Part shown: positions 3,001-46,199 of the stretch, piece after piece
Numbering within the stretch: position 1 is the first letter of the stretch
Layout: every line of letters starts with the position of its first letter
Assembly (NCBI GenBank): GCA_036172245.1
Contig: JAYWIR010000040.1
Coordinates: 1,426,001-1,490,000 of the forward strand
From: Raillietiella orientalis
Taxonomy: Eukaryota
DNA: 64,000 nucleotides
Direction: 5' to 3'
Translations under genes and position numbers: made by a program
Notes under the pieces: model-generated
Database searches by the model: none
Told to the model about the DNA's origin: nothing
The model's input: only the letters and a program-made list of their open reading frames with translations

Positions 3001-3970
3001 CTTTGTCGGTAGCTCCTCCTGTCGATAGACGGCGGTGCATCCCGGGGCATCAAGGGACAAGGAGGGGGAGGGGGAGCTCTTTGTGGGTGGACGGGTGGCG
3101 GCGCGCTCTCTCCGCTCCGCTTGGGTGTTCACGGCGCCCGAGGGTGATTCGTCCAGGAGACGGGAACGGCGGTTCGCGGGATTCGTCGTTTCGCGAGCCC
3201 TGGGAGAAGGGCGTGGCACCCCCTCCCGGCACACGCGAGCCGGGAGCCTCTCTCGAGCGCGTTGCGCGGAACCAGGGGCGGGTAAGGAAAGACGGGAGAA
3301 GGGAGAGGCTGGGACTCCTTGGGGAAGAGCACTGCCTGCTGCTGCCGCTGCCCTCGATCGCCCGGAGGCGTGGTGCTCATGTTGGCTGCTTGACGCTTGC
3401 GCACACGCACCCCCCTTCTCGGCTGCTCTTTGCCCGGCCGAGCATGGCTGGAGAGAGTGCGCGCGATAAATGTCCCGGGGCTCCTCCTCCCCCTTCCTCT
3501 TCCGCGCCCACTCTGAGCGAGTCCTCGCTGCGCAGTCGAGCTCCCCTGGGGAGGGGCTGCGTCTCCTGTTTGACCTCTATCACCCCCTCCCCCTCTTTCC
3601 TCAATGCTCTCGGCCCTCCTGTCTGCTCCAGCCTGCTCCCCCTTGCTGGAAGCATCAGGATGCTGGTGGGCGAATGGGAGAGGGAGGATGCACCCACCCT
3701 TCGCCTGTCTTCAGTCGCCTACCCCACCCCCATCCCCTTCTCTTGCTTGCCTTCCTCGCCACCTTCGGCCGAATGCTGACCATCTCTCTTGCAAGCCAGG
3801 TATTCCCCTACCTGGACTCCCTCATCTCCGCGGAGAGGTGGAACGTCCCCGAGGAAGAGACGTACCACGTGAAGAAGGACGACGCTGCCACTTGGCTGGC
3901 GGTGATGCTTTCCGTGTCAGTGGTGACGGTGTCGAAAGTCCTGAGAGTGCTGAAAGGACAGGTCAAGTGA
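61..3970 (+). CDS. Paralog A (5'-partial): spliced gene for a predicted helical protein, candidate long-chain four-helix cytokine; exons 61-174, 2224-2367, 3800-3970
   Basis: Three exons with canonical AG/GT boundaries, all phase 0, with GC3-rich codons. They join to ARDVYNVRDFQELFELFEDQRHLDIPEVNCDLGDADSK|DLYLQLRSALSKYKKIVDEMKNEYILDQLQVTSVLKAWINMYFDALLE|VFPYLDSLISAERWNVPEEETYHVKKDDAATWLAVMLSVSVVTVSKVLRVLKGQVK*. Each exon aligns by eye with the matching exon of paralog B. Upstream exon(s) lie outside the window. The gene model is well supported; the product call is inference. Confidence 0.8.
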
Positions 3971-4862: not shown

Positions 4863-5892
4863 CTGGGGCTCTCGCCACTGGGTGCACGGCTGTTCCGTTC
4901 AGTGGTTTCCCTCCTGGTCCCCCGGGAGACCGCGCGGCCGCGTCCTTCGGAGTCGCCGCCGCTGCCTCCCTTGGTCTCTGGCGGCGCAATCATCCGACTT
5001 TCGATTCCCGGAGGGCGCTGGGGTGTGCGCTCCCTCCATGCCCGTCTCGTCGAGTCCTGGGCAGAAAGGGCTCCTCCTCTTCGACCCCCTCCTCCGGGAA
5101 AGGCGGAAAGGGTTTCGCGTCCATGCTGCGGCCGCCCGCTGCCCTACTCTTCTTGTCGTCAGCGTCCCAGACCCCGGACGGCGAAGACAAGGAGGAAGAA
5201 GCGGAGGGATGCTGAAACCTCGCGCCGTGACCTCTCGGGTCACAAGTAGGCTGGCCTCGAGACGAGAGGTGCACGGAGACGGGAAGGTTACCCTCAGCAA
5301 CGGGCACTTGACCTTCGGCGAGGCCGACTGTTACGGCGCCTGCAAGGCGCCCAGGAGGAGGAGGAGAAGGAGACCATCGAAGAAAGAGGTGCCTTCTCCC
5401 CCCCCCCCTCGCCGCAGCTGAGGACGTCACGAGGACTGCAGAGACCTCTGCCGACGCCGCACCCGGCTCGAGTACTGGGACAGCGGCGATCAGCGGGCGG
5501 TAACTTTCAGGATGAGACTCACAGGAGCGCTAGCGTCGCCACAGCTGACCCTGGACAGGTGAGCTCTCCCGCAACTCTTTCTCTTCCCTTCCCCTCCTCT
5601 ACCCGGTGCTTTCCAAGGGCAGCCAGCTCAAGAGTGGGAGGTTCCCGTTTCCCTGCGTGACCTTTCCTCGCAAGGTTGGAGCGAAGCGTCGGCGGCAGGT
5701 GCACGCGTGCCCACCCTGCCTCTGCCCCATCTGCCAGACTGATGGTGTACCCGCGAACGGGGGAAGCGAGCGAGTTGCTCAGGCGAAGGAGGAGACTCAC
5801 TCGCCCAGACCGCAAGCGTTCGCACGTGCCGCCTCGTCCGTCGGCCTGCCATGTCAGTGAAATCCCGTGAGGAAAGGAGGAGATTCCCACAG

Positions 5893-6140
5893 GATATGGC
5901 GGCGTGGAATCGCACATATATCAGTTATCCCAATGTTTGATGCAGAGGGGCCACAAGGTGATCGTGGTCAGACATGCGTATGGGGACAGAATTGGCATCC
6001 GGTACATGACCAATGGATTAAGGGTCTACTACCTCCCGCTGCCTGTGATGTATGAAGAATGCATTTTCCCCACCGCTGTTTGCAGTCTCCCTCTGCTGAT
6101 ATATATCATTTTGAGAGAAAGAATCACCGTGGTGCACTCT
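5893..6140 (+). pseudogene. PIGA: Isolated fragment of PIG-A (GPI-GlcNAc transferase catalytic subunit)
   Basis: Translates as [81 protein letters not shown], the conserved PIG-A/Gpi3 N-terminal region. The preceding SDFFYPNM motif is absent and similarity ends at VVHS with no splice donor. No other PIG-A exons were seen in the window. Confidence 0.85.
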
Positions 6141-8507
6141 GCATTCTCGTACTCCTCGGTTCCCCCGGACAACCCACCGGCTCGGCATGCCCTCTCGGGA
6201 ACCCACACGCCGCCGCAGAGCGGGAGGGCGTCCCGGACTTCGCCGGGAGGACCCTCCGCACCCCCGACGAGGGGGCTGTCGCAGACTCCTGGAGGTGCTT
6301 TGGAGGAGCTCAAGAGCAGCGGAGGAGGATCTCCCCCTCCCTCTGCCTCAGTCCCTGAGCGCTCTTCTGTCTCCCTCAGCGTGACACCACCATCGGGGAC
6401 GGGACACCACGGGTCGGGAGGGAGGACCTGGCTCCGGGCAGGGGGTTGAGGTCGCTGACAAGTGACCTCCCTCTCTCAGTCGCAGGTGGAACCGTTCCTT
6501 CCCCGCACGCGCCCCCAGGTCATCCCCGGGGGCCTCGCGACCCGCAGCCTCCTTGGACCTCGTCCAGTGGCGACACACGGGAAAGCATCTCCGTCATGAG
6601 GCAGCTGCGGCTCCTGGAAACCCCCTGGACTCACCAGGGTTGGTGCCGTCCCCCAGGTGGCAGTGCCGCGCCGAGAGAACGCTGCCCCTCAGAGCATCTC
6701 TCCCGCCGCCGGAGACCGGGATCGCGCTGGAGTCCCTGGGGAAAGCGGGCAGGGAGCTGTGACTGCTTTCCCTGGTCCCTGGCGTACCACATGGGAGCGA
6801 TCTTTCCAGATCGCGCGAGCAGGCTCCCCACCCCTTTTGCGCGCTTTCAGCGTTGACCTCGTGCCTGCAGCGACCCGGATGCGTCCGCCGCGGATGTGAA
6901 CCACTCCGCCTTCCGGGATACGCAGCGACGGGATTTCGTCCGCAGCGCCCACACGGTGGAGGCGATGGGAAGAGATGCTCCCGGAGTCTCTTTCCCCTCG
7001 CTTCCGGGACTACCGACAAAAGAGTCCCAAAGTTCGTCTCCGGGAGCAGTCTCGAATGAAGGAGGTCGTGGGAACTTCCCAGGAGACAGTGTACGAGAAG
7101 CGAAGGCTGTGGAGGAGTTTCTTCCGGTCACGGTGATGCGGGAGGTTTTCCCATGCACTGCGGAGTCTTCGGGCGGCGGCTTTCCAGAGAAAAAGGGCGA
7201 GAGGGGCTATGGGGCCATCCATCTCGCCCGCCTCGTGTGCGAGCACGGCTTGCTTCGAGGATCGGCCAGGGTAATTCATGGCGACCCTCCTGCTCCTTCC
7301 GTAGCCTCCTCTTTATCTCCCCAGGAAAAGACCGCTTCAAGAAGCTGGAATGCGCCCATCAGCCGGTTGCCGAGCTCCGGGACGAACCCGGAAACGCGTG
7401 CGCGTGCCGCACGGCGCGAGGAAGCGTTCTCGAGGTCCGGGTGGCGGCGGGCCACCCGCTGTGTCCCGAACCCAGTTCGAAAAAATCAACTGCCCGCGGC
7501 AGGAACCTCTCCCTATCGCTCCCGACTCCACTTCTGGCATCTCCTTAGGAGCCCCCGTTGCTAAGGGTACGGACCACCCCTATTGCACCTTTTTTTTTTT
7601 TTTATCTTTTTATCAGGGATGGTTGGGAGAAGAACGAATCGGTAAGCCGCCACCGCGAGCACGTCACGCGGCACCCGAGTCTTCTGATCACGTAGCATGC
7701 ACAATCTTGCGCGAGCCGGATGCAGGATGGGGGGTGGATTGCTCCTTGCAGCTACCGAGGGCAGGCGGGCAACGGAGCTGCAGGATGCCATCTCCAGTTT
7801 GTGGGTCACCCACCCTCCTCTCCCCTTCTCTCTATTTTTCTTTTTTTTTTCCCTGCGGAACGCAGGGAGGGGGCGCACGCACACACATAAACGACCCCCC
7901 TTCCAAAGCGGCCGAGTGGCTCCATCTCGTGAGCGGAAATCACAGCACGGAAACGGCGCAGCCTGCCGGCACCGGGCCAGAAATGGCGGCGGCGACGGAG
8001 TCGGCAGCGGGAAAGCGTCGTGCAGACTTCTCACCTTACTGAGAGAGACGCGTGCTATCGCCCTCGCATCTGCTTCTACGGAACTTTTGTTCTGCACTTT
8101 CTCGCCTCTTTTTTTTGCTTCCCCCCCCCCCCCCCATTTTGTTTCCGTTTTCCTTACGGTTTTCCCCCGTTTCCCCCCCCCCCTCCCTGCTGCTCCTCTC
8201 GATTTTTCCTGTATTCACTTCCGGCTGCTGACGTATCGATTTGTCACTCATTCATAGAACATCAAGGTCATCTTGGAGCGCGCGCGCTTAAGATACTCTG
8301 CATTATTCTCCCACTGTGCCTGTGTCCGTGCAGTCGGCAAGGTAACCCCCGCGCCGTGTGGAGGCCTCTAGTCGGCCTTCGCGCATGCCGCCTAGCACGT
8401 CGGAGGTGCCGCTGCCGGTCGGCCCCTCATGCCCTATTGCGTGAACCTGAGAGGCGAGTCCCGGGCTAAAAGCGACTGCAGAGTCAAGCAGCAGCATTGG
8501 CAGCGTC

Positions 8508-11500
8508 ATGGTCGAAGAAGGTCAACTCCACAACAAGGGCTGGCCCTCCGCGGCATCCGGGATCCGGGAGAAGGACAGCAACAAATTCAAGGAGGCCCTG
8601 AAGCAGGCCGTGGGCAACGCGTACCAGCACACCGAGGGCCAATGGCTCGACGACTTGGTAAGGGACCTTCGTGATTCGGTTCCTCCCTGTCGCTCCTTTC
8701 TCTCTCGCGCCGCATCCAGAGTTTTCTCAAGATGGCAGCGGCGCCTGCTTCCCCCTCCTTCTCCTCCTCCTCTGCCCCCCCCCCTCCCCGCTCGCCCTCG
8801 TGGTTGTCGCCCGCGCGAATCGAGAATTCCAGGTGCTCGTGTCGCCTTGTCTCTCGCACGCGCGCTCTCTTTCCCTCTTTCGAGACAGAGATCCAACGGG
8901 GCCTGCAGGATTATTCCGGAAGGCCTTCTTCCCTCCCGCCGTTCCATCCCTCCCGGAAGTCCGATGTTCCTGGCAGGATGCTCCTTGGACGCCGCCGGGC
9001 TCCTCTCAGCGGCTCCCTCCAGTCCAAAGAAGCACGCGTTCGTCCGCCCCCGTCTTCGGTTCGGTTCACTCGTCCGTGATGTCATCGGGGCGCGCGCGCG
9101 TCGCGGGCAGAGGGATTATTGCGCAGCGCAGTCTCCAAACACAAACATTTTTTTTTTCTTCCCCCTTTCCTTCCTCTCCAGAGTTGTTGTTGTTGTTGTT
9201 GGTTTATCAGTTATCTCACGTCTTTTTTTCTGTGTCCGTGTGTCCTCTCTCTGCCGCGGAGAAGCGCTGATGCGGCGTCGCCCGGAATTCCGCGTCGCGC
9301 GCAGGTGTCCTGTTCTCGTGTTCCCGTCGAAGCGTCGCTCTCTCCAGGCGGTGGTGGTCACCCACACGTCTCTCCGGCCAGGTACGGCGGCGCGATTTCC
9401 GTCCGCCGTCCGAGAGCGCGCTCGTGCGTGCCTTCGGCAGGGTCGTCCGCCGAGACGGTCGCCGATCCGTCGTGGGCACGAGCCGCTCTCCTCCGAACTC
9501 TCGTGGGGAAATAGGGCGGCTGCACATTGAGTGAGCAGAAGAGAGAGGGGGGCAAGAGTCGAGTTCTCTCTCCCTGCTATCCGCCCCTGTTGACCACGCC
9601 TCCATACCTGCGCGTCGGTGCGTCAGACCGTTCCGCCAGAGTTTGCCTCATCTGAGCGCGCATCTTCCGCCGGGAGGTGGCTCTCTGCCTCTGTCGAAAG
9701 GCAAGGGGAAGCCTCCCTCTTTTTTTTTTTTAAAAAAAAAAAGGAGCGCGAGGGGGGGCTGGAAGCGGAGGAACCATTGGAAGCGGAGGAACCAGGAAGT
9801 CCCTGCCAGCTCCGCGCCCATGAAGTTCCTGGTCTCTTCTGGAGGCGGGACGGCGTCCTCGGACGCTCGCGGGCTGACCAGCAGGTCGGCGGCGGTCTGT
9901 GTGGTCGCATGCCTGTTGGCCGAGGCCCACAAGAAGGGAGAAAACCTCCTGGATTGAGGTGCTTCCGTCCAGGTCGTGGGAGTTGTGTGAACGCGGCGAT
10001 CCCATAGAGGGCGCACTGCTAGGAGGACGACGGTCTCCATCAGATACCCCGCCCTGCTTTCTCTCTCCCTCCATCTCTCCTTCCAGAGAGCCTTCTTTCC
10101 CGTCTGCCGTCTCGCGCGAGACCTTGCCATGCGGCGGGAGCGGGGATTCGGAGCTTCTGGGAGAGAGAGGGGGGGGGGCACTCGAAGAAGGAGCGGAAAA
10201 TTGCGTCCTCTTCCCGCATCGTTCCTGGGGAAGAGCGTGGCCTCCCCACGCGGTCTTCCCTCCGGGGGGTCTCGACGGCCTGGCATCGCGGCCGTTCCTG
10301 CCGTCGCCGGGCGCTCGACCTACCCGCTTCCTCCCTTCCCGATAGGGGGGGGAGGTCCACTTTGGCTTTCGAGGTGGGTCGGAGGGACGGCTCAGCGAAC
10401 TCTCGTGAGATACTGCGCCCGCTTGACGACTCGCGAGGGCGTGCAGATAGGGGGAGGGCTGCGTTTCTCCCCCTCCCCTCCTCCTTGGTTTTGCTCTTCC
10501 CCGAGACTGTTCATCCCAGTCTCCCGAGATTCTCTCCTGGACCCTCTGCTGCCGTTGTTCCTGCTGAACTCTCCACGTCCAGGTCCTCCCGTATCCTGCT
10601 TAGAGACGCTCCTTCCGGCTCTCACTGGCGATGCGTCAGCGCAGAAACGACCGCGCGCCCGAACTCCTCTGCGGGAAGGTCACAGCGACGAGTCCACCGG
10701 TCCTTCCTGGACTCTTCCGTCCCGCACCAGCTGCGCGCTCAGTCGGACTAGGGGGAAGCGAGAGGTCGGCGCCGCTCTTGGAGGTCCTCAGCGCCGACCT
10801 CCGAAGGCGGCCAACCGAACAGCAGCTGCCCGGTACGCCCTCCGCGTCGCTTCCGCCTTCCCCAGTTGGGCCGGGAGCACAAGGAGCAAATTTCCCGCAA
10901 GAGCGTAGCAATGGCCGGCCGAGTGGATGCGAGGTCGAGTTCCACGCCTCCTGCTTTTTCTTTTTTTTCTAAAGCCATCGGTTCTGAGAACCGCCTTTGC
11001 TTGCTCCTGCGCGCAACAGTGGCAGTTCGAAGAGTCTCCTCCAGGGTGGTCTTTCCGCCCCCGTTCGTGGACGCTGCCTCTTGCTAGATCGACGGCCGCA
11101 GCGGGAATCCTTCCTCTGGCTGCAAGAGACCAGTACCCCGGCTGACATCCCAAATCTCTTGGTGCTGGCCCGGTCGGCGACCTCCCTACTACATAGCGCC
11201 TCACGTCTCCGGCTTCTGCCCGTGGACCTCCTGCCCACCCTCCCAGGTGTTTTCTGGAATTCCGCTTCCATCCGAGGTCGCATCCAGTGACGCTGGGGGC
11301 TCGTTGCAGTACGCAATTCCTCATCTTCCTCCCGGGAAGCATGTACCTGCCGGAGCCATCGCGAAGTGGTGCTCGCTCCACTCACGGTTGCCGTGGATCT
11401 GGCAGGGTGATCACCTCCGGACCTCAAATGACCTTTTCTTGGTGACCTGGGAGGTTCGTTTCGCTGCTGCATTCCGGCTCGCTCCACCCTTCCCTCCCGT

Positions 11501-14500
11501 TTGTCAAAGGTTTCCGGGCTCAGCTGCCTCCTCGACCCGGGGTGACCTTCTCCCGCCGCCGTTCGACAAGATCGGGAGCCCGAGCGGTCCTCCTCTCGCA
11601 CAGCCTCCGACCACCGGATCATTCCCAGCCCGGATCGGTTGGCTTGGACGTCCCACTTTCAGCGAGCGTCCCTCCCTAGGGTTACCGCTGTAGCTCACTC
11701 TGCTGCCGGGAGCAGGAGGGTAGTGCCAGGAGGTCATGTTGGGCCATTCCCCTTTCTCTTCCGCGTCTCCCCTCCCTCACCTTTCCGCTGGAACGGAGCT
11801 CCTCGACTTGTGCAGCCGATCCCCAGCCTCCAGAAGGGCAGGAAGACGGGCGAGTGGGCTGGGTTCGCCGCTTTGCTCCTCGCTCTCCTGAGATCGATGG
11901 GCGGGAGATTCGTGGAGACCTCCTGCCTCCGCTTCCTTCGTCCCCTTTTGGAAGTTTTGAGAAAACAAGCGAACAAACGAAACGGAAAAATCATCAGAAA
12001 GTTGTGGATTCCTCTTGCGCTTCCGGGAACCCCTGTAGGACTCCCCCTGACCGTCCGTGGCATCAGTGAAGCACGGAGCTGCCGAGGGGGCCTTTCGAGG
12101 CCACACGCACAGTGGACTCAGTTGCTCCAAGGTGCATCGCAGGACAGGACGCGGCCATCCTCCCTCCTTTCCCCTCTTCCTTCAGCTCCAGCCTCCGACT
12201 CGCTTCGGGAGGACCTCAGAACCGAACTGGGGACTCCCGGCAGCATCTTCGATGAGGACGCATGCCGCCCTCCTTCCCGCGCCGAGGGTCCGTTCCTTGA
12301 GGGACTGGCTGCCTCCTCCTCTCGCGCCAACGAGCCCGTCTCCCCGTTTCCTGTTCCGGGGCAGCCGAGAGAACTGCGAGGGATCGCGCGCAGCGTGCTT
12401 CCAGGTCCGTCCCTTCCTCAGAACCACGTGGGAGGGAAGGCGCTCACTCGCTGACCTGCGTTCTCGCGAAACTCCCCTCTCCAAGCGAGCGGGTTTTTTC
12501 TTGCTCCCTTTCTCCTCGAAGGGTTGCTGCACCGCGCGGCGGCTGAAGTCGCTTGGCCGGACGGTGGGTCGCGAACCAGACCAGCCCGACTTCCTTCCTT
12601 CCCCTCCGCGAAACCCTCGCTTCCCCGATCTTTTCTCAAGGGGAGCGACCTTGCAGGATGTTCCCCGAGTAGCCTTTCATCCCAACGGCACTCCGGACGC
12701 GCCCACAGATCTGGAGGGAGAAGGACGGGATCATAGCTTGAGGCTTGCGCAAGCCACGGTCAGCAAGAGTGCTGGAACCCTTCACCCCCGGCCGCCGTCT
12801 CGGTCGCCGTGGTTGCCGCGCAATATGTATATATATATATTTGCTCATCTGATCGCCGTTTAAGTGCACGAAACCTTTTTTTCAGGCTCTGCTGTATGGC
12901 GTGGACACCTTCGAAGACATCTGCGAGATGTTCGACACTACCACACTGGAAATTCCATCGATATGTTGGGATGACGAGCAGACGGAAACGCAGGTCATTG
13001 CACAGTTCCTCTGCCTGCCTCGTCGTGACTCAGCAGCTTGTTTTCTTCTCCATTTTAATAGCAGTTCCTCTTTGTGTGTGGGGGGGGGGGCATAAAACTC
13101 AACATTGCAGACTGCTTTTCCGTCGTTGAGCTTCAGCATCCGCTCCCCAGACTCCGCTTTCCATGTGATGAACACTCGCTGCATGGGAAGGCGAATTTTC
13201 CGTTTGTGTGGTGTATCCGACACGGACGGAAAGTTTCCAGCTTCCTGTGGACTCTTAGCTTGCGTGCCGCTTTGCTTAACTCAGAGCGCGTTCCCTCGGT
13301 TCGTCAAACACACGTCATTGGACCGCGTGTAACGATGCTTCCTCCGACCACTTTTCAAATCCCCTCCGACATCCAGAAGAATCCTCTGCAACCTCCCCGG
13401 GAAGAATCTCCCCGTCCGTTCTTCCTTTCCTGTTCGGTGTTTGCTTTAACCCACGCCTCATTCAAGTCTCAACTTGTTGCATCGTGCACCATGTCTGCAT
13501 ATTCGGTGTTATTTCATGCATCGATCGCGCACATCATTATTGCAAGATTTCATGCAACATTGTTGCGCCGTCGTCGTGCATCACGGCTGCATATTCCGTG
13601 TTATAATCGTGCATCGATCGCGCACATCATTGTTGCAAGATTTCATGCAACATTGTTGCGCCGTCGTCGTGCATCACGGCTGCATATTCCGTGTTATAAT
13701 CGTGCATCGATTGCGCACATCATTGTTGCAAGATTTCATGCAACATTGTTGCGCCGTCGTCCCAGGCGACAGTGTTGCAGTATTCTACACGTCCTTCCCT
13801 GCACATAAGCAACATTGTTGGCGGTGTCGGTGCTTTTTGTCCGAGGTTCGATTCTTGCCAGCTTGCATTTGTTTTAACGGTCTCAAGCAAAGTCATCTCT
13901 GCACGTTCAGGAAGTGCCAGCAAACGCCTCGAATACAAAAATTTGAAGTTGAAGTCTGTGGGTGCCTTTAAATCATTTTCGGGTGTTCACGCATCCTGGA
14001 GTCTGACGTCAGGCACGTTCCTCCACTTAAAAGCATTTGTTTTTGTAGCCGAAAAGGAAAAAGCAGATAACAGATTTGTGGGGAAACCATTTGTTTGACA
14101 TGGAAGCTCACCTTCATTTAATGAAAGTAGACAAGAACCCCCCCCCCCCCCGAGGGCAAATGTATGTTCTCATATTTATAGCGGAGGCTTTAAAGGATAA
14201 GCGGCCTTAAAGGTACCGCCGTGTTGTTGACGTTTCAGGCAAGGTTCAGGATTCCATACTTAAAATAGCATTCTGCATGGAGTTGGTAGACCACTGGAAA
14301 AAAAAAATAAAGTTAAGAAAACAAATCTCGATCGCTATCTTAGTCGGTGAGACCCAGATACGTGGAAGTTATTTCACTCCATCTCATTTGTTCCTGCTCT
14401 GGCACCTCTGCTTTCACTGGACGTATCTGTTTTGTTCCGTGGTGTGTGGCGTCCGTTCGAGGGCGCCTTCCTTCTCCAAGGAATCTGCAGGATTCGAATC

Positions 14501-17500
14501 GGTTCGGGCAAAATGAATGACCTGGACAGTGACTGAGCGGTTGATGACATTTAGCGTCGCTGCTACCAGTTTGCGTGAGGGACTGTCGCGCTCCTTGCTT
14601 TTTTTTTTTGCTTTCTAAAAGCATATGGTTAGCGTTCAAAGCGTACACGGAGTTGGTGGACAGTCTTTGGTTTGGAACGTTCCTCAAGAGACCCATGACG
14701 GTGGGGCGTTGGAAAATGGATTCAATCCTACGGAGATTGACGGCGGCTATCCACCAGTGTGGTGCTGTCATCCGCACTGTGGTATTAGGCAGCGAACATT
14801 AGTGCCTGGCTGTTTACTGTCAGCAATCCACCAATACCGTTCTTTTTTTCATCTCTCGACGTCCCTTTTTTCATTTGTCGAGGTCAGTTCCTAGCTCCTG
14901 CCCTTTCCGGGTTGAAACCTCGACTGCAGTCCGTGCCATCCGCCGCAGCAATCGTGCAACCTCGTGCACTTCCTCGAATTTCATGGTACAGATGCCTCTT
15001 CCTTTGCCTGCTGGAAAAAAAACACGTCGAGACCGATTTTACTTTCTGGTGGTGGTGACGTCATTCGGAGGACATACCGCGACACCCTTCGTTTCCAAGT
15101 GAACGGTTTGCCTTTTATGGCCTCAGTGCCGCCAGCTACAAGTATGCTTCTCCGGGATGATTCGCTCTGGGGCAGCCGCTGCCATCCCAACCTGTGGTAA
15201 ACGACTATCCTGATGTTTACGTGCATCTCCGTAACTTCGTGCACGCGTTGGCGAAGTTTGGAAGCGCAGCTGCAGAGAAGAAAGGCATCCCCTTCGAGGC
15301 GTCTCCTAGCGCTCCCCAGCTCTCAGAGCGGATCCAGGAAGTGAGGAGCTGCTGCGCGTTCTTGCGGGGGCGCGTGGCAGTGCCAACGGCCTAGCCGCCT
15401 CGACAGCGCCGTCCGATATCGCTGTTTTCGCTGGCGCTCGCTCTCGGTGGTGGAGTGCTGGGAAAACGCGTCCGTCTCGGATCCTCTCTGCTTCCTCTTT
15501 GCTTCGTGCAAGGCGGCACGTGTTCCGCACACTTGCCTAGACGGGCGTGTCGTCGCCGCCGCCGCCAGGTTGAGGACGGACCGGCCGATGAACACCAGCA
15601 GACGAAGAGGTTCCCTGCCCTTCCTCGGCCATGCCTTTCGTCTCTCCGTCAGAGACGGTTCCATGGCGTTTCATTTCCGCGGTTTCGGGCGGGAGGCGCT
15701 CTTCGTGTTTCTTGGTGCACTGAAGAGAAGGGCAGAGGAAGGAACTTGGGAGCTTGGTTTTGGAGGGACGATGGTGGTGAAGCATCAGCGCCGGAATATC
15801 GCAGAACTGAGCCGGCATCGGTGGGTGGAGGTCCGTGGAACAGCAGGGGACCTGGAATGGGATTTCACTGCGTTTACGTCCACGTAGGAAATTACATGCA
15901 TGCTGAATTCACGCGCAACAGCAGATGTCTGCGCATTCACTGCATGGTGTATACATAAAAAAATATCAGTTTATTACACGTGATGTGATAAATTGAATTA
16001 CTTTTGAAATAATCATGTATTATTGTCAAATGAATGTCATCATTTCATATTCCGCATTGCGTCTGTCATGTTACGCGACATTTATGATTCTGTTTTCAGA
16101 AGTGAACTTGTGCTCTGGTTCAGGGGTACCATATACGTTTCCAATAGTAAATCAGTCACTGATTGAATGCCATAGCAAACATAAAGTATTAAGCAAATCT
16201 AACCACGCGTACGAGAGCAAAATTGTAAATGAATATGTAATTTGTAATTAAATATCTAATGTTGGAAAAAGGTCGGATTGTGATTTGAGACTCAGAAGCT
16301 TTGCAAAGCTCGAACTGTCCTCTTTGCCCACGTTGCTGTCCTTCTCTACTCTCACGAGTGAGGTCTCACTTCAGTCAGACTCGGTCTCCGGCAGACCGGC
16401 CGGGAAGGTTTTTCCATCTTCGGCATAGACTTCCTGCCACGGGCAAAGGGCGCCGATCGAGCGACGCGCCGCCGGGCAACTATTCGCAGCTGCCTCATTC
16501 GCCGCAAGCCGCGAGGCCAGCGTGTCCCACGCCCAGCACATTCCGCGGAGTCCGTGTTTTGGTCCAGTTGAATCCGGGAGCCGGGAGCGCCGCTCGCTGG
16601 TATTCCTTCCCCTCCGGCGGCGGTCTCTCCTTCCTCCTTGCGGCTCCAGGAGGAATGCGAGGCGCGTACGGCGGGCGTCCCGAAAAAGGGTGCGCCGACG
16701 AGAGAGCCTCGCGTGCGGTCCGGACGAGCAGGTAACGACCTGAACTCCCTGGGGGAGCGCCTCCTCCCGCCTCGGAAACTCTCCCCGAGGGGCTGGTTCG
16801 ACCCCTTCCTCCCTTGCGTGTCCTCCCTCTGCTTGGCAGGCGATCCGAGCGGCTGAGCGCTGCGTCCGCCTCCGGCTACCGTGGCTCTTTTCTCCCCTCC
16901 CTCCTCGTTCGCCCCGCCTCCCCCGCCTTCGAGTGACTTCGTGCTCTTGTGGGCTCACCTCGCCCGTCTGCACCGCCTCCCGTGCCTCCGCGGGCGTCCC
17001 CTGCCGCTCGGAAACGCAGCCTCAGAGAGAGTTTTCCGGCTCCCCTTCCTTGACGGCCTGTTTGGGGGACTGGAAGTTTACTGAGGAGAAGATCGGGCGC
17101 TTCCTTCCTTCCTCTCTCCCTTCTCTTTCCGGCTCCTTTCCCCTTTCCTCCCTCCCTCCTCCCTCTCTCCGAGAAGTAGAGGATCTGGCGGATGTATCAG
17201 CCGCTTCTCCTCTTCCCCATCCTCCTCCCTCTCTCCAAGGATGTCCGCGGGGGACACGACTGCGCTACCGACGTGTGCGCAGCCCTCCGCTCCAGCCAAG
17301 GAGAAGCGGAAAGGAGCGACCGCCGTCGTGGCCGGCAGGCGGCAACACTACCAAGCAGCCCTCACCGTCTTTCCTTCCAGAAGTACGTGGACCTGTACTC
17401 AGTGATGACCGATTACAGCTCCGTGATCGACGCGGTGAAGAACATGAACGTCCTGGATCAGATGGAACTGGGCAAGAGTCTCCAGGAGTGCGTGGAGTCT

Positions 17501-17744
17501 TATTTCGAGTCCCTGAAAGAGGTGAGCGGCGGCGGCCTCGTCCCTTTCAGGGTGAACTCCCTCCCCTTCCCAGATCCCTGCCTATGCGAAGAACATCCTG
17601 GAAGCGGAGTGCTACCCCATCCCGGAAGTGCAGGCGGACCTGTCAGAAGTCCTGGAGTCCGACCCGGCGACGGTGTTGGCTGTCATGCTGAGCATCTCCA
17701 CCAGGACCATAGTGAGCATCTTCAGCTGGTTCAACGAGGCATAG
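8508..17744 (+). CDS. Paralog B: spliced gene for a predicted helical protein (189 aa from ATG 8508), candidate long-chain four-helix cytokine; exons 8508(or 8482)-8657, 12886-12993, 17381-17521, 17574-17744
   Basis: Canonical GT-AG phase-0 introns give MVEEGQLHNKGWPSAASGIREKDSNKFKEALKQAVGNAYQHTEGQWLDDL|ALLYGVDTFEDICEMFDTTTLEIPSICWDDEQTETQ|KYVDLYSVMTDYSSVIDAVKNMNVLDQMELGKSLQECVESYFESLKE|IPAYAKNILEAECYPIPEVQADLSEVLESDPATVLAVMLSISTRTIVSIFSWFNEA*. The last three exons are supported by homology to paralog A (15/47 ungapped identities in the penultimate exon; shared D-x-AT-x-LAVMLS-x-S-x-x-T). The first exon rests only on phase, donor and codon usage, and the true start is uncertain. Confidence 0.78.
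10990..12450 (+). mobile_element. Highly decayed non-LTR retrotransposon remnant (APE endonuclease-like start) inside an intron of paralog B
   Basis: ESFLWLQETS near 11105-11135 resembles the APE motif x-x-LQET. The rest is frameshifted and the boundaries are approximate. Confidence 0.3.
13495..13760. repeat. 93-bp tandem repeat, about 2.8 copies, TGCA-rich with an internal inverted repeat
   Basis: GCATCGAT(C/T)GCGCACATCATT starts at 13518, 13611 and 13704 (period 93). Units contain TGTTGCA-agatttca-TGCAACA. Confidence 0.95.
13800..16260 (+). mobile_element. Unclassified decayed element (possible DNA transposon) in an intron of paralog B
   Basis: A lower-GC insert bounded by TGCA/AT-rich ends. 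It holds broken coding pieces: Cys-rich HCWRCRCFL, DPDTWKLF...LSLDV, LVDSLWFG, and YRDTLRFQ...SMLL...HPNLW. The last piece resembles the remnant at 59.8-60.1 kb. Confidence 0.35.
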
Positions 17745-20809: not shown

Positions 20810-21430
20810 TGATGTACATTAATATATTGTTAATACATATTAAAGATTATAGAAATAAATACATATGTATGTAATTCGATAATTACATATTGATTTAACA
20901 TATATCTATTATATGCATCATGCATATATTTATTTACTGATTGTGAACATATGCATATCAATTACATAATAAGCACATATATTTTATAATCTTTAATGTG
21001 TATGTTTGAATAATATATATTATTATATCAATGAATATGTATGCTCAAATTAATCTGTATGTCAATTTATATACAAATGTATGCATTAATATACTTAATA
21101 TGCATATATACTTATTTCTTGTGGTCTGTGTAATATATATTAATCTATGCATTAGTCGATATTATCGATTATATGAATGGTATGCGTGTTAATAAAATAT
21201 CACTAAATATAAACATGAAAGTTTTCAACTAGCAATTATCGCGGCTCCGCACGCGTCCTCGCCCACGATATTGCCCGTGAGCAATACACATTAATGTATA
21301 CATGAAAATAAATATGGATGCATATGCATGTCAAATACTGCTATGCAAAATGCACACGACAATGGGTATTAATAAACGTAAAAATAAACCTGTATTTTAA
21401 TCTATGTACATATACATCTAACCATGTGTT
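20810..21430. other. Sharp AT-rich island (TA/TGCA-rich) inside GC-rich DNA
   Basis: Abrupt compositional switch at both ends. The flanks show imperfect inverted similarity (CGAATGCCGAAACCCCCAAAG at about 20760 vs the reverse complement of about 21432-21452). Confidence 0.8.
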
Positions 21431-24159: not shown

Positions 24160-25140
24160 GGTGTATTTATTTCTCATGAAGAAGAAAAGAACAATCGGTA
24201 AAGTCTGTGGTTGGACCTCTGGTCCACCAGGCGCAATTCCACGGAAACCTCCCGAGTTACCGGTTCTCAGACAAGTGCGGTACTCCACGGCTGCATAGGA
24301 GAGGGGACAAACGAAAAGAAAAAACAAAAATGAAAGATAAATAAAACAAATTTGGGGGCGGGGAGGCGGGAAAGGATCACTATTTGCTGGGGAGGGTCCT
24401 TTGCATCCTCTGCAGGATGCCGATAAGCTCTTGCTGTATTGGGATGTCCAGGTGAGGTCATCGCGTTGCCATCCTCATGAAAAGGACAACGAAGTCTATG
24501 GCATCCCTATCACTATGCCCTCTTCCAGCATGGATCCAGGGAGCGACGATCCCGCGCAGCAGAGAGCTGCGAGGGAGGCTGCTGGCCGAAGTGCGCCGCG
24601 GATTAAGAGAGGGTTCAGAGCGTCCCTGGAGTTGCCGCGGGGTCGCGGCAAATCGCTCCAAGAGGAGTCGGAGTACAACACAATCCACTAGCAGGTGGAG
24701 AAGGGTTCCCGCTCCTCGCACCTTCGTGTCCAGTGATGCTTGCGGGCATTGCCCGTAAGCATCACTGGAGTGAGTTGGGTGAGGGAGGTCCTAGTGCAGA
24801 AGTAGCAACGGCGCCGACTTCTGCCACATCAAGGGGAGGGTCCGGGTGTTCATGAGCACCGAGAGACACTGCCGGTGTTCAAACAGAACATCCAGTAGCT
24901 CGTCCCAGCGCAAAAGTTCACGAGGTCGAGCATTCGGGGTCGCAGTGTCGGTGAGCTGGACCGTCGTTCACTCGCCTAGTCCTCTTCTCTTGCCGGAGAT
25001 CTCCACGGAGACCTCCAATCTGTCCGTAAGGATGCTGTCCATGTGTTTCCTAAGAGAGGGCAGAGCGGAGGTGAAGGAGGTTCTGCTTGTCCATGCAGCT
25101 GGCATCGCAGCATCCTCGAGCTATCCACTCCTCCAGTCTT
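24160..25140 (-). mobile_element. 3' end of an L1/Tx1-like LINE (zf-RVT region, T-rich 3' UTR, AATAAA); copy 1
   Basis: GAGTLLHLLVDCVV is a degenerate CCHC. Colinear nucleotide homology to 47030-47985 in inverted orientation, e.g. shared ATCTGTCCGTAAGGATGCTGTCCATGTGTT and AAGGAGGTTCTGCTTGTCCATGCA. AATAAA on the minus strand at 24166-24171. Confidence 0.8.
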
Positions 25141-31119: not shown

Positions 31120-33773
31120 ATGCGTTTTACCCTAGGTGTGAAGAATTACGAAAACATGATTTGCGATTTTTATCATTTAGCAGTTGGAAAGTTGAAGGAA
31201 TTTTCAATTATCCCAATTAACAGGGAATTGGTAGAGTTGACACTGATTGTTATTATTCTTACCTTGGTGCTCGAACATGCATGGAATTTCAGATACAAGG
31301 GTAATTATTCACAGAAAGCAACATAATATAATTTGTTTGCTGTGCAGATGTGTTGTGGCCAATTACTATTAACTCCATGCATTTTAAAATTTTGTTTTAT
31401 GTTTTGAATCCGTAAAGTCCTCAAAAATCCTATTATAAAATCAAGCTCTTACTATTTTGCCTTTAATCAGCATATATTGCAGTGCAAATAAAAGTTTTGT
31501 CGATTGTTCACAATTTTACTATTGTGGTTTAATACAGTTATAACTCCTTAAATTATTTATTTGCATTCCATTGAGTTGGTGCAATCAGCTTGTGTGTCCT
31601 TTTAGAATCTTTTGGTTACTGGAAGCAGAGAATCTTTCTAATTTTGAGAAAATTGCCCCCAATCAGAAATAGAATTGCTTCAGAGAAAAAAGGACTTTTT
31701 CAGTCTTTTTTGAAAGAATTTGTTAAACACTCAACTGGTATGCCGGAGTTTTCGTTTCTTCCCCAGAAAAGAGAGTCCCCTAAGACAGTTGTGGAGTATG
31801 CAAAAAAATATATGCAGTTAGGTACAATCTGTGTTTTTTATTCAAGTCAATATTATGTGACTTTGTGAAAAATTTAAATTGGTGATCTATGTTCAGTTAT
31901 AATGCATAAAGAGAGTTGGCAGTTATCAAAAAGTGATTTATTTCATTCTATATTTGCATTTTTTGTTCTTGGTGATGTCTTTTCACGTATAATGGATGAT
32001 GTTTTGACTCCTGCATATTATCTGACCAAAGCAGTATTTTTTTTTACTCATAGTATACAAACTTTGTGACATAACACGGATTTTTTTTTCTTTCTCTCCT
32101 TTTGTTATTTTGAAGAAATCTCTTTGTGTCTGATATCACCAGTTTCAAGTGAACTTAGCATATGAAATCTCTGATCTGCAATCATCTCACAGGTCCATAT
32201 GATTGGAAGAGTGGCAAATTATCTGGAGCTGTGTATATAAATGATATGGATCTCTTACAATTGCAAAATGAAGTGTATGCTCTTGCATCTCTGTGTAATC
32301 CTCTTCATGCTGATATATTTCCTGGACTGCGCATAATGGAAGCAGAAATTGTTCGTATGTGCTGTAATCTATTCAAAGGTGGTCCTGATTCAGTTGGCAT
32401 GGTAAGTGTGCTAGTGCTGTAAGTTATAAACATGATATTATAGGTAACATCTGGTGGTACTGAATCAATTTTGTTAGCATGTTTGGCTTACAGAAACTAT
32501 GCCCGTAATGTGAGATGCATCAGTCATCCAGAAATGGTGATTCCTGTTACTGCTCATGCAGCATTTGATAAAGCAGGTGCATTATTTGGTATCCATGTTA
32601 TTCATGTCGATGTTTGTCCAGATACTATGTGTGCCTCTGTCAAGGCCATGAAAAGAGCCATCACAAAGCAGACTTGCATGGTATTACTAGAAATCTTTAA
32701 AACTCTGTAATGTTTTATTAGTTAGTTGCTTCAGCACCAGCATTTCCTCATGGATCTATAGATCCTGTTGCAGAAATTGCCCAGTTAGGGTCTTCCTGTC
32801 AAATTCCTGTTCATATAGATTGTTGCTTAGGTGGATTTTTGCTTCCTTTTATGGAAGAGGCTGGTTTCTCTGTTGCTCCATTTGATTTTTCTGTGCCTGG
32901 AGTGACCAGCATATCTTGTGACACTCACAAAGTAATTTTAGACAGAAGGAATTTCATAACAAAAAGTTCTTTTTAGTATGGTTGTGCCCCGAAAGGCTCA
33001 TCAGTTATTCTTTACAGAAGTGCTGTATATCGTTCACAGCAATATTCTGTGCAACCTAACTGGCCTGGAGGAGTGTATGCTACTCCTACTTTGGCTGGAA
33101 GTCGTCCTGGAGGTGAGACAGCTGTTCTTTTCTTGATGTTCATTCATTCAATCAGGTTTGAGTGCTGCATGCTGGTCATCCTTACTTTACTATGGACGGG
33201 AAGGTTATGTGAACAACACCAAGCGCATTATAAGTACAACACGCTACATAGCTGATAAATTGATAAGTAGGAACACTTGCCAATTCTGATCAACAATTAA
33301 GCTTGTAGGCATCCCCAGCATTTTTATTATAGGCGAACCAAAAGTTTGTGTGATTGCCTTTAGCTCAAATCAGTTTGATATTTATCTGCTGCTAGACAAA
33401 TTACTAAGCAAAGGATGGAATTTAAATCCGTTACAGTTCCCCCCTAGGTTTGTGCTGCAAAGTTTATTGCCTCCTATTCAAGTAGTATACATTTATGTGT
33501 TACACTTTGCCACACACCTGAAGGAATAGCCGATCAGTTTGTGAGTGACTGTAGAGAAGCTGCAGAATCGCTGCTAAAACAGCCTAGTCAGTCAGCACCC
33601 CAAAATGCAGTAAGTTAAGATATTTATGTCTCTAGTTGCTATTGTGGTTCCAGTGCGCCATCTATGGTAGAGCACAGATGCTACCAGATCGTAGTATAGT
33701 GTCTGAATTTGCAAGTTTGTATCTGGATGCATATTATTGTATAGGAGATTCTACAGTGCCCAACTCCCCATGA
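31120..33773 (+). CDS. SGPL1: Sphingosine-1-phosphate lyase (PLP-dependent), about 560 aa, 10 exons: 31120-31300, 31606-31821, 32193-32401, 32444-32680, 32722-32931, 32977-33112, 33156-33266, 33309-33447, 33486-33609, 33654-33773
   Basis: All introns are GT-AG and preserve frame. Motifs: N-terminal hydrophobic anchor, [58 protein letters not shown] (PLP lysine), [29 protein letters not shown]...PDRSIV. The start codon is uncertain (31120, 31156, or an upstream micro-exon at 30921). Confidence 0.97.
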
Positions 33774-34899
33774 CTGATGTTCCATGACTTGAATTACACA
33801 TGTAGTATTTATTACCCACGTTTGTATTTAATGTGTAGGCAATTCAAAAGCCCAGTTATCCTAGCATTTCTGTCCCCGAAGAGAGTTCTACCGGTTTTTA
33901 GGAATCCAATTGTATTCTTATTTGCCTGTTCCTTTTACAAAAAAGGAAGTGAAATGAGTCCTTAGGTTTACCTTCTCTACTAACCATGCCGCGATCATTT
34001 ACTGTTGGCTGGCCATCCATTGTGCGCAGTATTCTTCGTCTCGATTATTGTAGTAGATGAAAGTCATTCCAGCAGTGCCAGGCAGGACATGGTTTTTTTT
34101 TTTTTTTTTTTTTATTTATTCTGTCCTGATGCGCATTTGACTCCCAGCACTTCCGCTGCCCACGAAAAGCGCGCGTCTCGATCGGTTTCATCGTCTCCTA
34201 GCAAGGCAGTTGATGAAAACCTCTGACGTCATGAGACTGGAAGAAATTCTCCGCTGTTCTCGCTGAATGATTCAACGGGCTGCGGTTGTTTTTTTGTTTG
34301 TTGCAGATAGTTCTTTCCTCTCTCTCTCGCTCTCCCCGTAATTCCAATTTTATAACAAGCACAGATTCTCACCGAAGAAGTTGGGCTCGGACTTCTGAAG
34401 TACTTCTGAACCATAATAATATGACTTCTCTCCTAATGATGGGCTTCTCATTCTTCATGACATTCTTCCTACATCTCCTTCGCGCTCCTTACCAAAGAAA
34501 AAACCGAAACAGACTCGAAAGCGCCTCTGTTCGAAGCAGACTTTTTTTGTTTTTTCTTAAATGGAAAGAGTACAAAGCGTCATAGGACGGTGCCTTGGTT
34601 TTGAGCGGATCACATACGGGGGGAGGCCATTGAAGCTTAAGTGTGTTTCATCTGAAAGCTTTGAGCACTCAAGGGAGCCAGTGGACCGTATCTAATGTAT
34701 TCCATCGAGAAGGGCATACAGCGAGTAGACGAGTTGGAATCGCGATCCCACTTGCGATCACAACTTGAAAGTGATTTGTGCGTAAACAGCCTCTGTCTGA
34801 CCTCTTATTCCGTTTGGTGGTTCCGTTGAATTATGGAACGGACCTGATTCGCCCTCGCATACTTTGCGCCTCCTTTTCCGAGGCTGCTGTGGAGGAGGA

Positions 34900-41294: not shown

Positions 41295-42883
41295 TCAAGG
41301 AATGTACCCAAAGTATTTTTTCAACTGCTCCAAAAATATAAACGTAAGTATGGTGTGTGGCCCAAGTCTAATAAAGGCAGGAACATAACCCTATAACAAT
41401 GGCATTAAATTAGCAAATGAAATCATACATACTTTGAAAAATCCCTTAACACCTAATGAGGCAGTATAGCGCACCAAGTGACTTAGATTCTGAAACACAT
41501 CAAGTAGCTAGAACAACTTGCAATACTACATACTTGATATTCACCCGGTTTTGCATTCATTGCTCTAGTTTTGAGCACATCCAAGGGCTGTGTGAAGCTT
41601 GTAGCTATCAAACCCTACATTAAGATATACAGATCTGCACATGAATGGAGAGTTTTATACTCACAGCACACAAGCTACATATAAAATGTGTACTTAGTGT
41701 ATCTTCAAACCAAGGAGTTTCAAGCAGCAAATACTTCAATTGATCATAAAAAGATATCTGACCAATTGTCATTAGCATAGCTCGAGCAGTAGCCATTGAA
41801 GCACCAGAAAAAAGTGTGGTTACACTTTCTTCTCTGAGAACTCGTCTCAAACCATCCAATGCATGCTTATAGCTAGGCAAGTGCTCATGCAAACAGCAAA
41901 CTCAAAGAAGCTTACTTTCTTCTTTGATCAAATGGTAGTTTGATATCATTTTGCATGCGTACATTGATCATATCAGCTGGTGTACCAACAAACCCACCAC
42001 AGGCACCTGCTACCCCTGCCACAAGGACTTTTTGATAAAATGGAATTCCATGAGAATCCAACAGGTGTTGCTTACTAATCTAAGAATACAGAAGCAACTT
42101 TGTTACAAATTAATCCAAAAAAAAATTTTTTTTATTTGATTATTTGGAATTTTTGAAGAAAATATTTCATAAATAAACACCTTACAGAGATGCTTGGGAA
42201 GCAACCTTTCCAGCTTTTGCTGATATTTCCACCAAACATGGAAATTATCACTTTCATTTTGCTGGACTTCAAAAACTGCAAATCCGTGAACTTACTTCAT
42301 AAATGCCAAATCTAGTAGTTGAATAAGTTGCCTGACGGAGAAGAGATGCAGTTAATCCGTTGTAAAGAGCAGAAACGCCCTGTAACCTTGCAATGTTATA
42401 CAATAATCTGAAGACATTACTGCTGTGTCCTTCTTGTTGTGTTTGTAAATGGACCTAATGAATACAAATGTTTAAATTCCATCTTCAAAACAAAAACAAT
42501 ACTGCTGCCCTTTATTGGTTAGCAATTTTAATTAGATTCTGAGAAATTAGAAATCAATCCCTATATCATTTTCTGATTTAAAATGATGCATTTGAGTTTC
42601 AGTAAACCAATAACCTTCCAAGAATGCTGGATACCAACTAGCCAAATACATGCTCAAATAGTTTTTAAGAACGGATTTTAATGAACACTTCAAAAGTAAG
42701 AAATGGCATCAGAATTCTGGTATTCAACTGAAACTTTCATGCAACTCAAATATAATCAGGCCTTTTGCAATTCACAAAGCAGAGTACCTTCAACAGATCC
42801 AAAGGGTGAGTGAAGCAAGCTGCTGCAGAAGAGGCAACTCCTCCAAAATACCACCTTCCTAAACGTTCCTTTGAGGCTGCCAT
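41295..42883 (-). CDS. SLC25A10: Mitochondrial dicarboxylate carrier (SLC25 family), 286 aa, 7 exons: 42883-42788, 42454-42296, 42079-41916, 41872-41665, 41614-41534, 41489-41433, 41390-41295
   Basis: MAASKERLGRWYFGGVASSAAACFTHPLDLLK|VHLQTQ...LYNGLTASLLRQATYSTTRFGIYE|...GTPADMINVRMQNDIKLP...RRN|YKHALDGL...GQISFYDQ...|...TQPLDVLKTRAMN...|...FFK|GYVPAFIRLGPHTILTFIFLEQL. It has three Px[D/E]xx[K/R]-type carrier signatures and DIC-typical motifs. All introns are GT-AG and in frame. Confidence 0.97.
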
Positions 42884-44340: not shown

Positions 44341-46199
44341 AGATTGAAATGAGATTCATTTAAAAAGAAAAAAAAAAAAACTTGATCAAATTCAAATTAG
44401 ACGCACGGATGTATCAAACATAGATGGTGGGAAAAATTTTGTTTCTTTAGGGAAAACCGCTGATGATTCTTACGCATAATTCAAAAAGCCCAGCCAGTCC
44501 ACGTTTTGATTCCTGTTTTCCGGACATATGAAACGATTCTAATTGGGGACGAAAATCTAACGATTCGAAATCAAAACGAAAATTTCGCTTCACACTTCAC
44601 CGTTTTAAAAACTCTCTCTTTCCTAATATGTCCTTTCCCTACCATGCTGATGTCTCATTACACTCCATCTCTCGGCCTTATTGAACAGTGTGTGCAGCTG
44701 GAGGAACAACGTACCTCGTGATCCAGAAAAATTCAAAGTCGAATGAGCATGGCATCCCTTTGTTTAGAAAGCGCTCCAGCAGGGCCTAGATTCCATAAAG
44801 TATTCTGGACAGCAGGATTGCGAAATTTTCTTATCCTCGAATATATTCGTTAATAGTCACAGATGCATTGAAAGGCGTATTCTAGATTTTTTGTTTTCTT
44901 TTTCTCCCGATTTTGCAACCTTATCTGATAACCTCTTGCTTCCAGCCCAAGCGCCTGAAAACGACGGAAAGAACGAAAACAAACTTGACGACCGCGAAAC
45001 CCATCATCGACGATCTCAGCCCACCGAAGAGGGAAAAATCAATCAATGGGTGCGGATAGCGACCAGGCATCTTTTCCCCAGACGATCTTTCCCATCACAA
45101 GGCGAAGGCACCCTCACAAAAAGGTAGAGCGGCCTGCGAAGGTTCTTCGCTTTTCTTTGCTTATGCACCCGCTCATGGTTACACTCATGCGCGCGAGCAA
45201 TCTTCTTGCCTCACATCGGCTAGCCCCTATTCTTATCCGCGGGAAATGTGCTTTCCTAACCCAGAGCCCAAGTACCAGTCCACCTATTTTTTGAAGGCCA
45301 TCCAGTTAAAACATCCCAGGTTTCAGGTGCGTGATCTCCTCAAGAACATGGCGTAACGGGTCGAGTCTCCTCGAGACGGCCCGTCCACAAGTGTCCCCTG
45401 GAAGATATGGCAAGCACCGGTAGGTAGTCGTAGCCTTCAGGACCTCACCGTGATTCCCCTAGTTACTGCATGCGTTAAAGCACGCAGTAACTAGGGAATC
45501 GCCGACCAATGTATTTGGAGCTGTCTTAAGCGACTGAAGATTGTGGAGATCTCTGTCCCCCGAAGGAGAGGAATTGTTTTGACCCAGCGGCGAGCCTCCG
45601 ACTCGAGCTGCACGCTAATGGGCGCCCTCCTCCGCCAGCCTGCTTGGGAGGAGGCACTGCGTTCCACCTTTTCCTGGCCTCCCTGTAGTTCCTCCCTCTC
45701 AACAAGGAGCAGCTGGTCTATAGCGCGATATCTCTGCCATGAGGGAAAAGAAGGTGCGGAGCAGAATGGAGCATTTGCTCGTGCTTGTGCTTTGCAAATG
45801 AGGGATGCAGGAAGTGACCCGGTATTTCCATTCCCTCCGACCTCGCTGTCCGTCTGGCATTTCCGTTTCATTCCTCTAGCCGAAGGTGTGGTCCCAGTAG
45901 GGCTTCTTCATCTCGACTGGCAAACACAGGCTGGCGCGTGTCTCCAGTGGCTGCCCGATTCGCTCCGTCTATCTCTCAGGGATCTTTGGTTCTCCTGATG
46001 CTTCGCCGTTTGTGTGGGATCCTGTGACCATCGCCCTGCTGGATGCCGGCTCCCTTCTGTCCTTCGCCTCGCCTCCTCCAGAGCTCCTTCATTCTTCTGT
46101 TCCTGTCGGTTTGGCCGACTGGGGAACGAGTGTTCTCTCTCCACGCTGGGATTCGAGGTCCGGAGGGTGTGCCGAAAGGATGAACCACTCCCTCTCTCT

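Follow-up and report, generated by a model that had tools for sequence, protein, structure and literature searches.

Tandem genes of Raillietiella orientalis as candidate leaderless helical cytokines with an IL6/CSF3-like exon plan

The coding sequence of human IL6 is divided into exons of 19, 191, 114, 147 and 168 nt and that of human CSF3 into exons of 40, 155, 108, 147 and 165 nt. These sizes, for which no numeric values were found in the literature and the one supplement searched, add up to whole codons (213 for IL6 and 205 for CSF3), in agreement with the lengths of the precursors. In the vertebrate IL-6/G-CSF genes, one intron lies close to the end of helix A, one ahead of helix B and one where helix C ends. 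IL23A, encoding the 189-aa IL-23 p19, has four coding exons of 162, 99, 147 and 162 nt, all in phase 0, its product carrying a leader and pairing with p40. CNTF has no signal peptide, and its intron plan differs from that of the genes described here, A and B; the exon sizes of the class II IFN/IL-10 genes differ from theirs as well. The class II plan, given as five phase-0 exons in the accessible part of its source (10.64898/2026.05.30.728932), was considered for A and B and rejected. In the portions available of two further sources, the genes of the IL-6/G-CSF family have five exons and four introns in both fish and mammals (PMC3271213, PMC6389648), and the family signature is C-x9-C-x6-G-L-x2-[FY]-x3-L (PMC3271213).

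In arthropods, helical ligands of the Domeless pathway are reported from Drosophila only, as far as the accessible texts of PMC5385356 and PMC5778769 go. Within these texts, Unpaired (Upd) homologs are annotated only in Drosophila species while Domeless homologs are found in 48 invertebrates (PMC5385356), and no Upd3 was detected in hemipterans (PMC5778769). Upd2 has been modelled as a four-helix bundle (PMC5385356, accessible part) and Upd3 is helical by CD (PMC7378365, accessible part). A survey of malacostracans recovered 47 Domeless proteins, and the word 'unpaired' is absent from its text (PMC5437397), and a shrimp Domeless is bound by a Vago protein (10.64898/2026.10.26.761873). Our literature search, outside which most subscription papers fall, returned no description of a gene of this kind in an arthropod outside the Diptera.

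The genes A and B of Raillietiella orientalis resemble the vertebrate IL-6/CSF3 genes (PF00489, PF16647) in encoding a core of about 190 aa and in carrying three phase-0 introns, with exon sizes near those given above, but four coding exons can be demonstrated instead of five. With IL23A they share the exon count and the phases, whereas no leader is supported for A and B; in being leaderless, the ATG-started products are comparable to CNTF. The Drosophila proteins Unpaired 1-3 are arthropod helical JAK/STAT ligands of Domeless, the role that we propose for A and B, but no exon of A or B gave a match to the Unpaired family (PF15972), whose Pfam model has 273 positions versus about 190 aa. We propose, with a probability of roughly 55%, that A and B are long-chain class I helical cytokines of about 190 aa, likely leaderless, that signal via JAK/STAT.

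Gene models of the tandem paralogs

The window analysed here, a stretch of 64,000 nucleotides, corresponds to C40:1426001-1490000 within a 210-Mb assembly of 491 contigs. The region switches between compact, AT-rich islands of housekeeping genes and GC-rich stretches, and both genes are located in one of the latter. The first conserved coding exon of A lies upstream of the window at C40:1418744-1418878 (L001:2644-2778), 7.2 kb upstream of the next exon; it comprises 45 codons from the ATG to a phase-0 GT donor at L001:2779 and matches the end of the B exon that ends at 8657. The following three exons of A, on the plus strand, are found at 61-174 (114 nt, phase 0-0, AG/GT sites), coding for the putative end of helix A and an AB loop with an Ile-Pro and a Cys, at 2224-2367 (144 nt, phase 0-0), coding for the putative helices B and C, and at 3800-3970 (171 nt including the TGA), coding for a short helix, a 16-residue loop and a putative helix D. 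Paralog B, on the same strand, starts with a segment at 8508-8657 that runs over 50 codons from an in-frame ATG to a phase-0 donor and covers a putative helix A; it continues with 12886-12993 (108 nt, phase 0-0, putative AB loop), 17381-17521 (141 nt, phase 0-0, putative helices B and C) and, after an intron of 52 nt, 17574-17744 (171 nt including the TAG, CD loop and putative helix D). Inside the window, AG acceptors are present at all these exons and GT donors at the internal ones, and the last three introns are in phase 0 in both genes. The splice sites and frames confirm the exon sizes of 114, 144 and 171 nt with phase 0,0 that a preliminary description had given for A, as well as the 108, 141 and 171 nt and the phase-0 introns given for B, the coordinates of B being shifted by one base.

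The exon pairs of A and B, aligned in exon order, scored z values of 4.5, 5.7, 11.0 and 7.9 against 2000 shuffles each, the observed score being reached by 2, 0, 0 and 0 shuffles, respectively, and high scores were obtained for the matching pairs only (4/4 on the diagonal). Within two blocks aligned without gaps, the paralogs agree best at codon position 2, with an identity of 0.68-0.70 versus 0.41-0.47 at positions 1 and 3, and in 5/8 exons GC3 amounts to 0.82-0.86. In a blind exon scan of 8660-17600, with codon usage taken from two further GC-rich genes and splice weights set by hand, the 141-nt exon of B ranked first (31.4) and the 108-nt exon second (15.0), the next of the 18 candidates listed scoring 6.5. 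In the same type of scan the 114-nt exon of A was not recovered in frame, its codon score being weak (-3.1). Since the exon-pair scores, the bias at position 2 and the ranking in the blind scan all point in this direction, A and B are, judged from their sequences, real tandem paralogous genes whose last three introns are well supported. Genome searches for further paralogs returned A and B only. We regard them as old tandem duplicates, so that the two copies count as one observation of the exon plan.

The preliminary description had also let B start at 8258, with a phase-1 first intron and with a 176-nt exon if the acceptor at 8481 is used; neither the phase nor this size is established. The acceptor is weak, with a pyrimidine fraction of 0.45, versus 0.60-0.85 at the six conserved acceptors of A and B and a background median of 0.5, and the other AGs within about 25 nt of 8481 would give phase 0, 1 or 2. 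The 84-nt candidate exon at 8258-8341 (plus strand) is open in two frames and contains no ATG; its hydrophobic frame was rejected as a signal exon with a codon score of -10.5, the lowest of the 13 segments scored. Another candidate 5' exon of B, of 25 nt at 7617-7641 on the plus strand, has strong splice sites (acceptor pyrimidine fraction 0.90, GTAAG donor) and could be UTR or coding; an ATG at 7619 would end in phase 2. Upstream of A, no exon comparable to 8258-8341 was found; its open frame starts after a stop located 83 codons before the donor, and the in-frame AGs have pyrimidine fractions of 0.30-0.50. Both paralogs possess an in-frame ATG flanked by G at positions -3 and +4, at 45 (A) and 50 (B) codons before the donor. 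An ATG-bearing phase-1 signal exon is thus supported for neither gene, and in the ATG-started products no leader is seen by inspection. The simplest reading of the sequence would be four coding exons with phases 0-0-0 and products of 187 and 189 aa, without a signal peptide.

Several other features occupy the region. Between A and B, an isolated N-terminal fragment of PIG-A (5892-6179, plus strand, Pfam PIGA E 4.8e-22), AT-richer than its flanks, runs into unrelated GC-rich sequence and looks like a captured gene piece, and 5347-5558 (plus strand) holds segments that look like exons, with a strong acceptor at 5417 and a strong donor at 5559, outside any assigned gene. In the second intron of B, a 92-93-nt unit occurs about three times in tandem (13482-13761). 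Inverted repeats of 0.9 kb, 71% identical, are found at 24204-25097 and 47047-47943, and a frame at 47188-47772 shows a Cys/His spacing suggestive of a retroelement remnant, with no Pfam match. A near-perfect 49-nt palindrome is located at 45452-45500, and further inverted repeats, either AT-rich or short, at 20833-21003, 24729-24769 and 49518-49560. In an AT-rich island at 31500-33800 (plus strand), a gene with a PLP-aminotransferase Pfam match, which by its motifs we take to be a probable sphingosine-1-phosphate lyase, has introns of roughly 30-50 nt, in contrast with the kilobase introns of A and B. A mitochondrial carrier gene lies at about 41600-42300 on the minus strand (Mito_carr E 7.5e-7, one exon). 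At 10-30 kb upstream of the window (L002, L003), a minus-strand gene for a HERC-type ligase (HECT E 3.6e-47, with RCC1-like repeats recognised by eye) and a plus-strand DM13-domain gene could serve together as synteny anchors.

Exon plan, predicted helices and signature residues

The last three exons of A and B are within 0-6 nt of the IL6/CSF3 sizes, and all are in phase 0. Under log-normal exon models with assumed parameters, the probability of such a match in size and phase is 1.3e-5 to 9e-5 per gene, which corresponds to 0.03-0.22 expected chance genes among 2,500 genes and 0.12-0.81 among 9,000, and, with five cytokine templates admitted, to as many as 4 per genome. Taken by themselves, size and phase are suggestive and strongly raise the odds for one gene, but they are not decisive. 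Of the IL6/CSF3 plan proposed earlier, the match of the three final exons and of the phase-0 introns stands, whereas the five-exon part with its phase-1 signal exon is unsupported; the ancient shared structure suggested by that plan keeps the agreement of the three exons in its favour, but since the model null lets 0.03-4 genes per genome arise by chance, ancestry is not established by the gene structure on its own.

The placement of the introns was compared with predicted helices, those of B, C and D coming from single-exon models and that of helix A from propensity only. For the peptide of the 144-nt exon of A alone, AlphaFold2 returned helices at residues 2-21 and 25-47 (pLDDT 74), the putative helix B beginning at the exon start and helix C extending to the exon end in an antiparallel hairpin. 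Over its full length this 48-aa model aligns with antiparallel hairpins, every one of them generic (VIA-align, Z<=6.9); no cytokine was among the 50 matches listed, which does not exclude the family, and Foldseek gave 0 matches with the same model. In the last exon of A, helices were predicted at 3-12 and 29-51 with a 16-residue loop between them (pLDDT 63, pTM 0.27); the short helix sits at the exon start and may be an extension of helix C. According to the propensity profiles of both paralogs, the first exon encodes, over its second half, a long helix that is mostly amphipathic, and the 108/114-nt AB-loop exon encodes a stretch with proline and with low helix propensity. A co-prediction of the four A exon peptides as separate chains scored 0.01 (mark 0.34), gave no answer and is not counted as evidence.

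On these predictions the first of the three phase-0 introns lies close to where helix A ends, the second immediately ahead of helix B and the third where helix C ends, in agreement with the positions that the preliminary description had expected. As in vertebrate IL-6/CSF3, long AB and CD loops and a short BC turn are predicted for A and B, and an up-up-down-down bundle requires a long loop, a short turn and a long loop (PMC7378365, accessible part). The predicted local helices and loops fit a long-chain class I cytokine bundle, consistent with it rather than diagnostic of it, because short amphipathic peptides are easily predicted to be helical.

With a Cys close to the loop-exon end as zero and the count carried over the intron, A has Leu at +10, Ala at +17, Leu at +18, Tyr at +21 and Val at +25, and B has Lys, Val, Met, Tyr and Ile at the same positions. 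The spacing of the first Cys, +18, +21 and +25 is common to A, B and the vertebrate IL-6/CSF3 proteins, and the Cys-to-Tyr distance is 21 in both paralogs although the intron follows +8 in A and +9 in B. The other loop Cys of B does not fit the signature. A relaxed pattern, picked after inspection of the A and B sequences, was reached by 520 (A) and 905 (B) of 200000 exon shuffles with intron offsets of 5-11, and by 1406 (A) and 2528 (B) of 200000 with offsets of 0-19. The strict signature fails in both, the second Cys (disulfide) and the Gly being absent and the exact Leu (+18) present in A only; we therefore do not file A and B in the IL-6/G-CSF family. The vertebrate proteins differ from A and B in these two residues and have a signal peptide, which is not supported for A and B; a match to the family profiles was seen neither with single exons nor in genome searches, whose controls also gave nothing. 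The site-III Trp of IL-6 is located in helix D. In A, a Trp is the fourth residue of the predicted helix D, comparable to the site-III Trp described for IL-6 in the accessible part of PMC7378365, and B has no helix-D Trp. The cysteines have also been lost in carp G-CSFs (PMC6389648, accessible part).

Homolog searches and rival explanations

Searches by similarity placed A and B in no family. Among 10 exon peptides searched against Pfam at E<=10, 3 matched any family, none above its cut-off and 0 a cytokine; an EF-hand reading of the 108/114-nt exon was dropped for want of a Pfam match. PDB sequence searches gave 2, 11 and 2 matches at E 0.16-5.7, none of them a cytokine, and recognition in the Atlas searches stayed below threshold. 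Profile searches of the genome for GCSF, IL6 and Unpaired yielded no candidates, and the controls also gave nothing. A search of 1.84 billion representative sequences returned 3 matches, all repeat-driven and none a homolog, and no homolog was confirmed among 243 longer candidates (0/243) or 600 metagenome pattern matches (0/600).

This absence of homologs agrees with a strong rival explanation, to which we give an appreciable though minor likelihood: A and B could be lineage-specific all-helical orphans, probably intracellular or membrane-associated and unrelated to cytokines, whose exon plan and motif are coincidental features of a genome-wide pick. The lack of a leader, the Met-Gly start of A with its two Cys, and the model null of 0.03-4 genes per genome are in the same direction. 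Phase patterns are moreover common: in the accessible part of a lamprey phase screen, 132 genes showed 0-0-0-0, 14 were short and secreted, and one, helical, passed these further filters (10.64898/2026.05.30.728932). Against the orphan explanation, it needs three coincidences, namely the exon sizes and phases, the placement of helices and loops, and the Cys-to-Tyr register in both paralogs.

A weak and rather improbable rival is that A and B are degenerate stand-alone REM (RasGEF N-terminal) proteins derived from an SOS-like gene. The 144-nt exon of A matches RasGEF_N at E 0.092 and Atlas REM clusters at 0.86-0.89, and the A product scores 9.5 bits on an SOS REM profile built from 115/120 SOS proteins, above 1000/1000 shuffles, the weak similarity to PF00618 covering A residues 57-126. 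B shows no such similarity, its -1.5 bits being reached by 192/1000 shuffles, so that the profile match is not found in both paralogs, and the Trp of REM is a Cys in B. A also falls far below the true remote REM of this genome, in PDZ-GEF (31.7 bits); the HHalign probability is 1.2%, and the one matching A exon reaches 13.4 bits against a Pfam cut-off of 28.3, for a family picked out of 24,736. Furthermore, 0/7 genome-wide PF00618 matches lie inside the window, A and B have no GEF domain, and the SOS intron is at a different place in the domain. That the exon chain is mis-assembled or the genes decayed, making the size pattern an artefact, is very improbable: the donor of the 108-nt exon of B is weak (0.6), the codon score of the 114-nt exon of A is negative and the 5' ends of both genes are ambiguous, but the four exon pairs match on the diagonal only and with open frames, conservation is biased to position 2, GC3 is high in most exons and no competing candidate above 6.5 was found in the introns of B.

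JAK/STAT context and significance

The genome contains a STAT (156 bits), which at L020:940-2523 forms an uninterrupted frame of 527 codons from the DNA-binding to the SH2 region and is about 45-51% identical to the STATs of insects, spiders, crustaceans, molluscs and fish, with beetles on top among the best 120 of 1117 matches, as suits an invertebrate that evolves fast. A JAK is present on C3, with the FERM domain, the second kinase-like segment and the tyrosine kinase domain in order. The JAK sequence (L028:4043-7977) is followed on the same strand, within about 40 nt, by an FKBP39-like gene (L029:135-926). Family searches of the genome for Domeless gave sub-threshold matches only, at loci without a recognisable receptor.

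Taken together with the gene models, the presence of JAK and STAT is in agreement with our proposal that A and B are class I helical cytokines. In such proteins a long helix A would be followed by a long AB loop, helix B, a short turn, helix C, a long CD loop and helix D, with three phase-0 introns retained in common with the IL6/CSF3 lineage and no signal-peptide exon. A and B would exit the cell without a classical leader and bind a Domeless-type receptor, and the signal may then pass through the JAK and STAT of the genome itself. The consensus for a lipid anchor is a Met-Gly start with nearby cysteines; A, which has both, is possibly lipid-anchored. A more specific reading, on which we would not bet at even odds, places A and B, as leaderless proteins, in an arthropod branch of the IL-6/G-CSF/IL-23p19 lineage in which the intron trio of the bilaterian ancestor and half of the signature survive, and has them act as the ligands of Domeless in an arthropod outside the Diptera.

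Arthropods widely possess Domeless, JAK and STAT, and A and B are plausible, unproven candidates for the ligands missing outside flies. If this is true, the intron plan of IL6/CSF3 predates the protostome-deuterostome split, and a filter for phase 0-0-0 and exons of roughly 110, 145 and 170 nt would allow a similarity-free search for ligands across arthropod genomes. If verified, the A/B pair would supply testable ligands of the JAK/STAT pathway.
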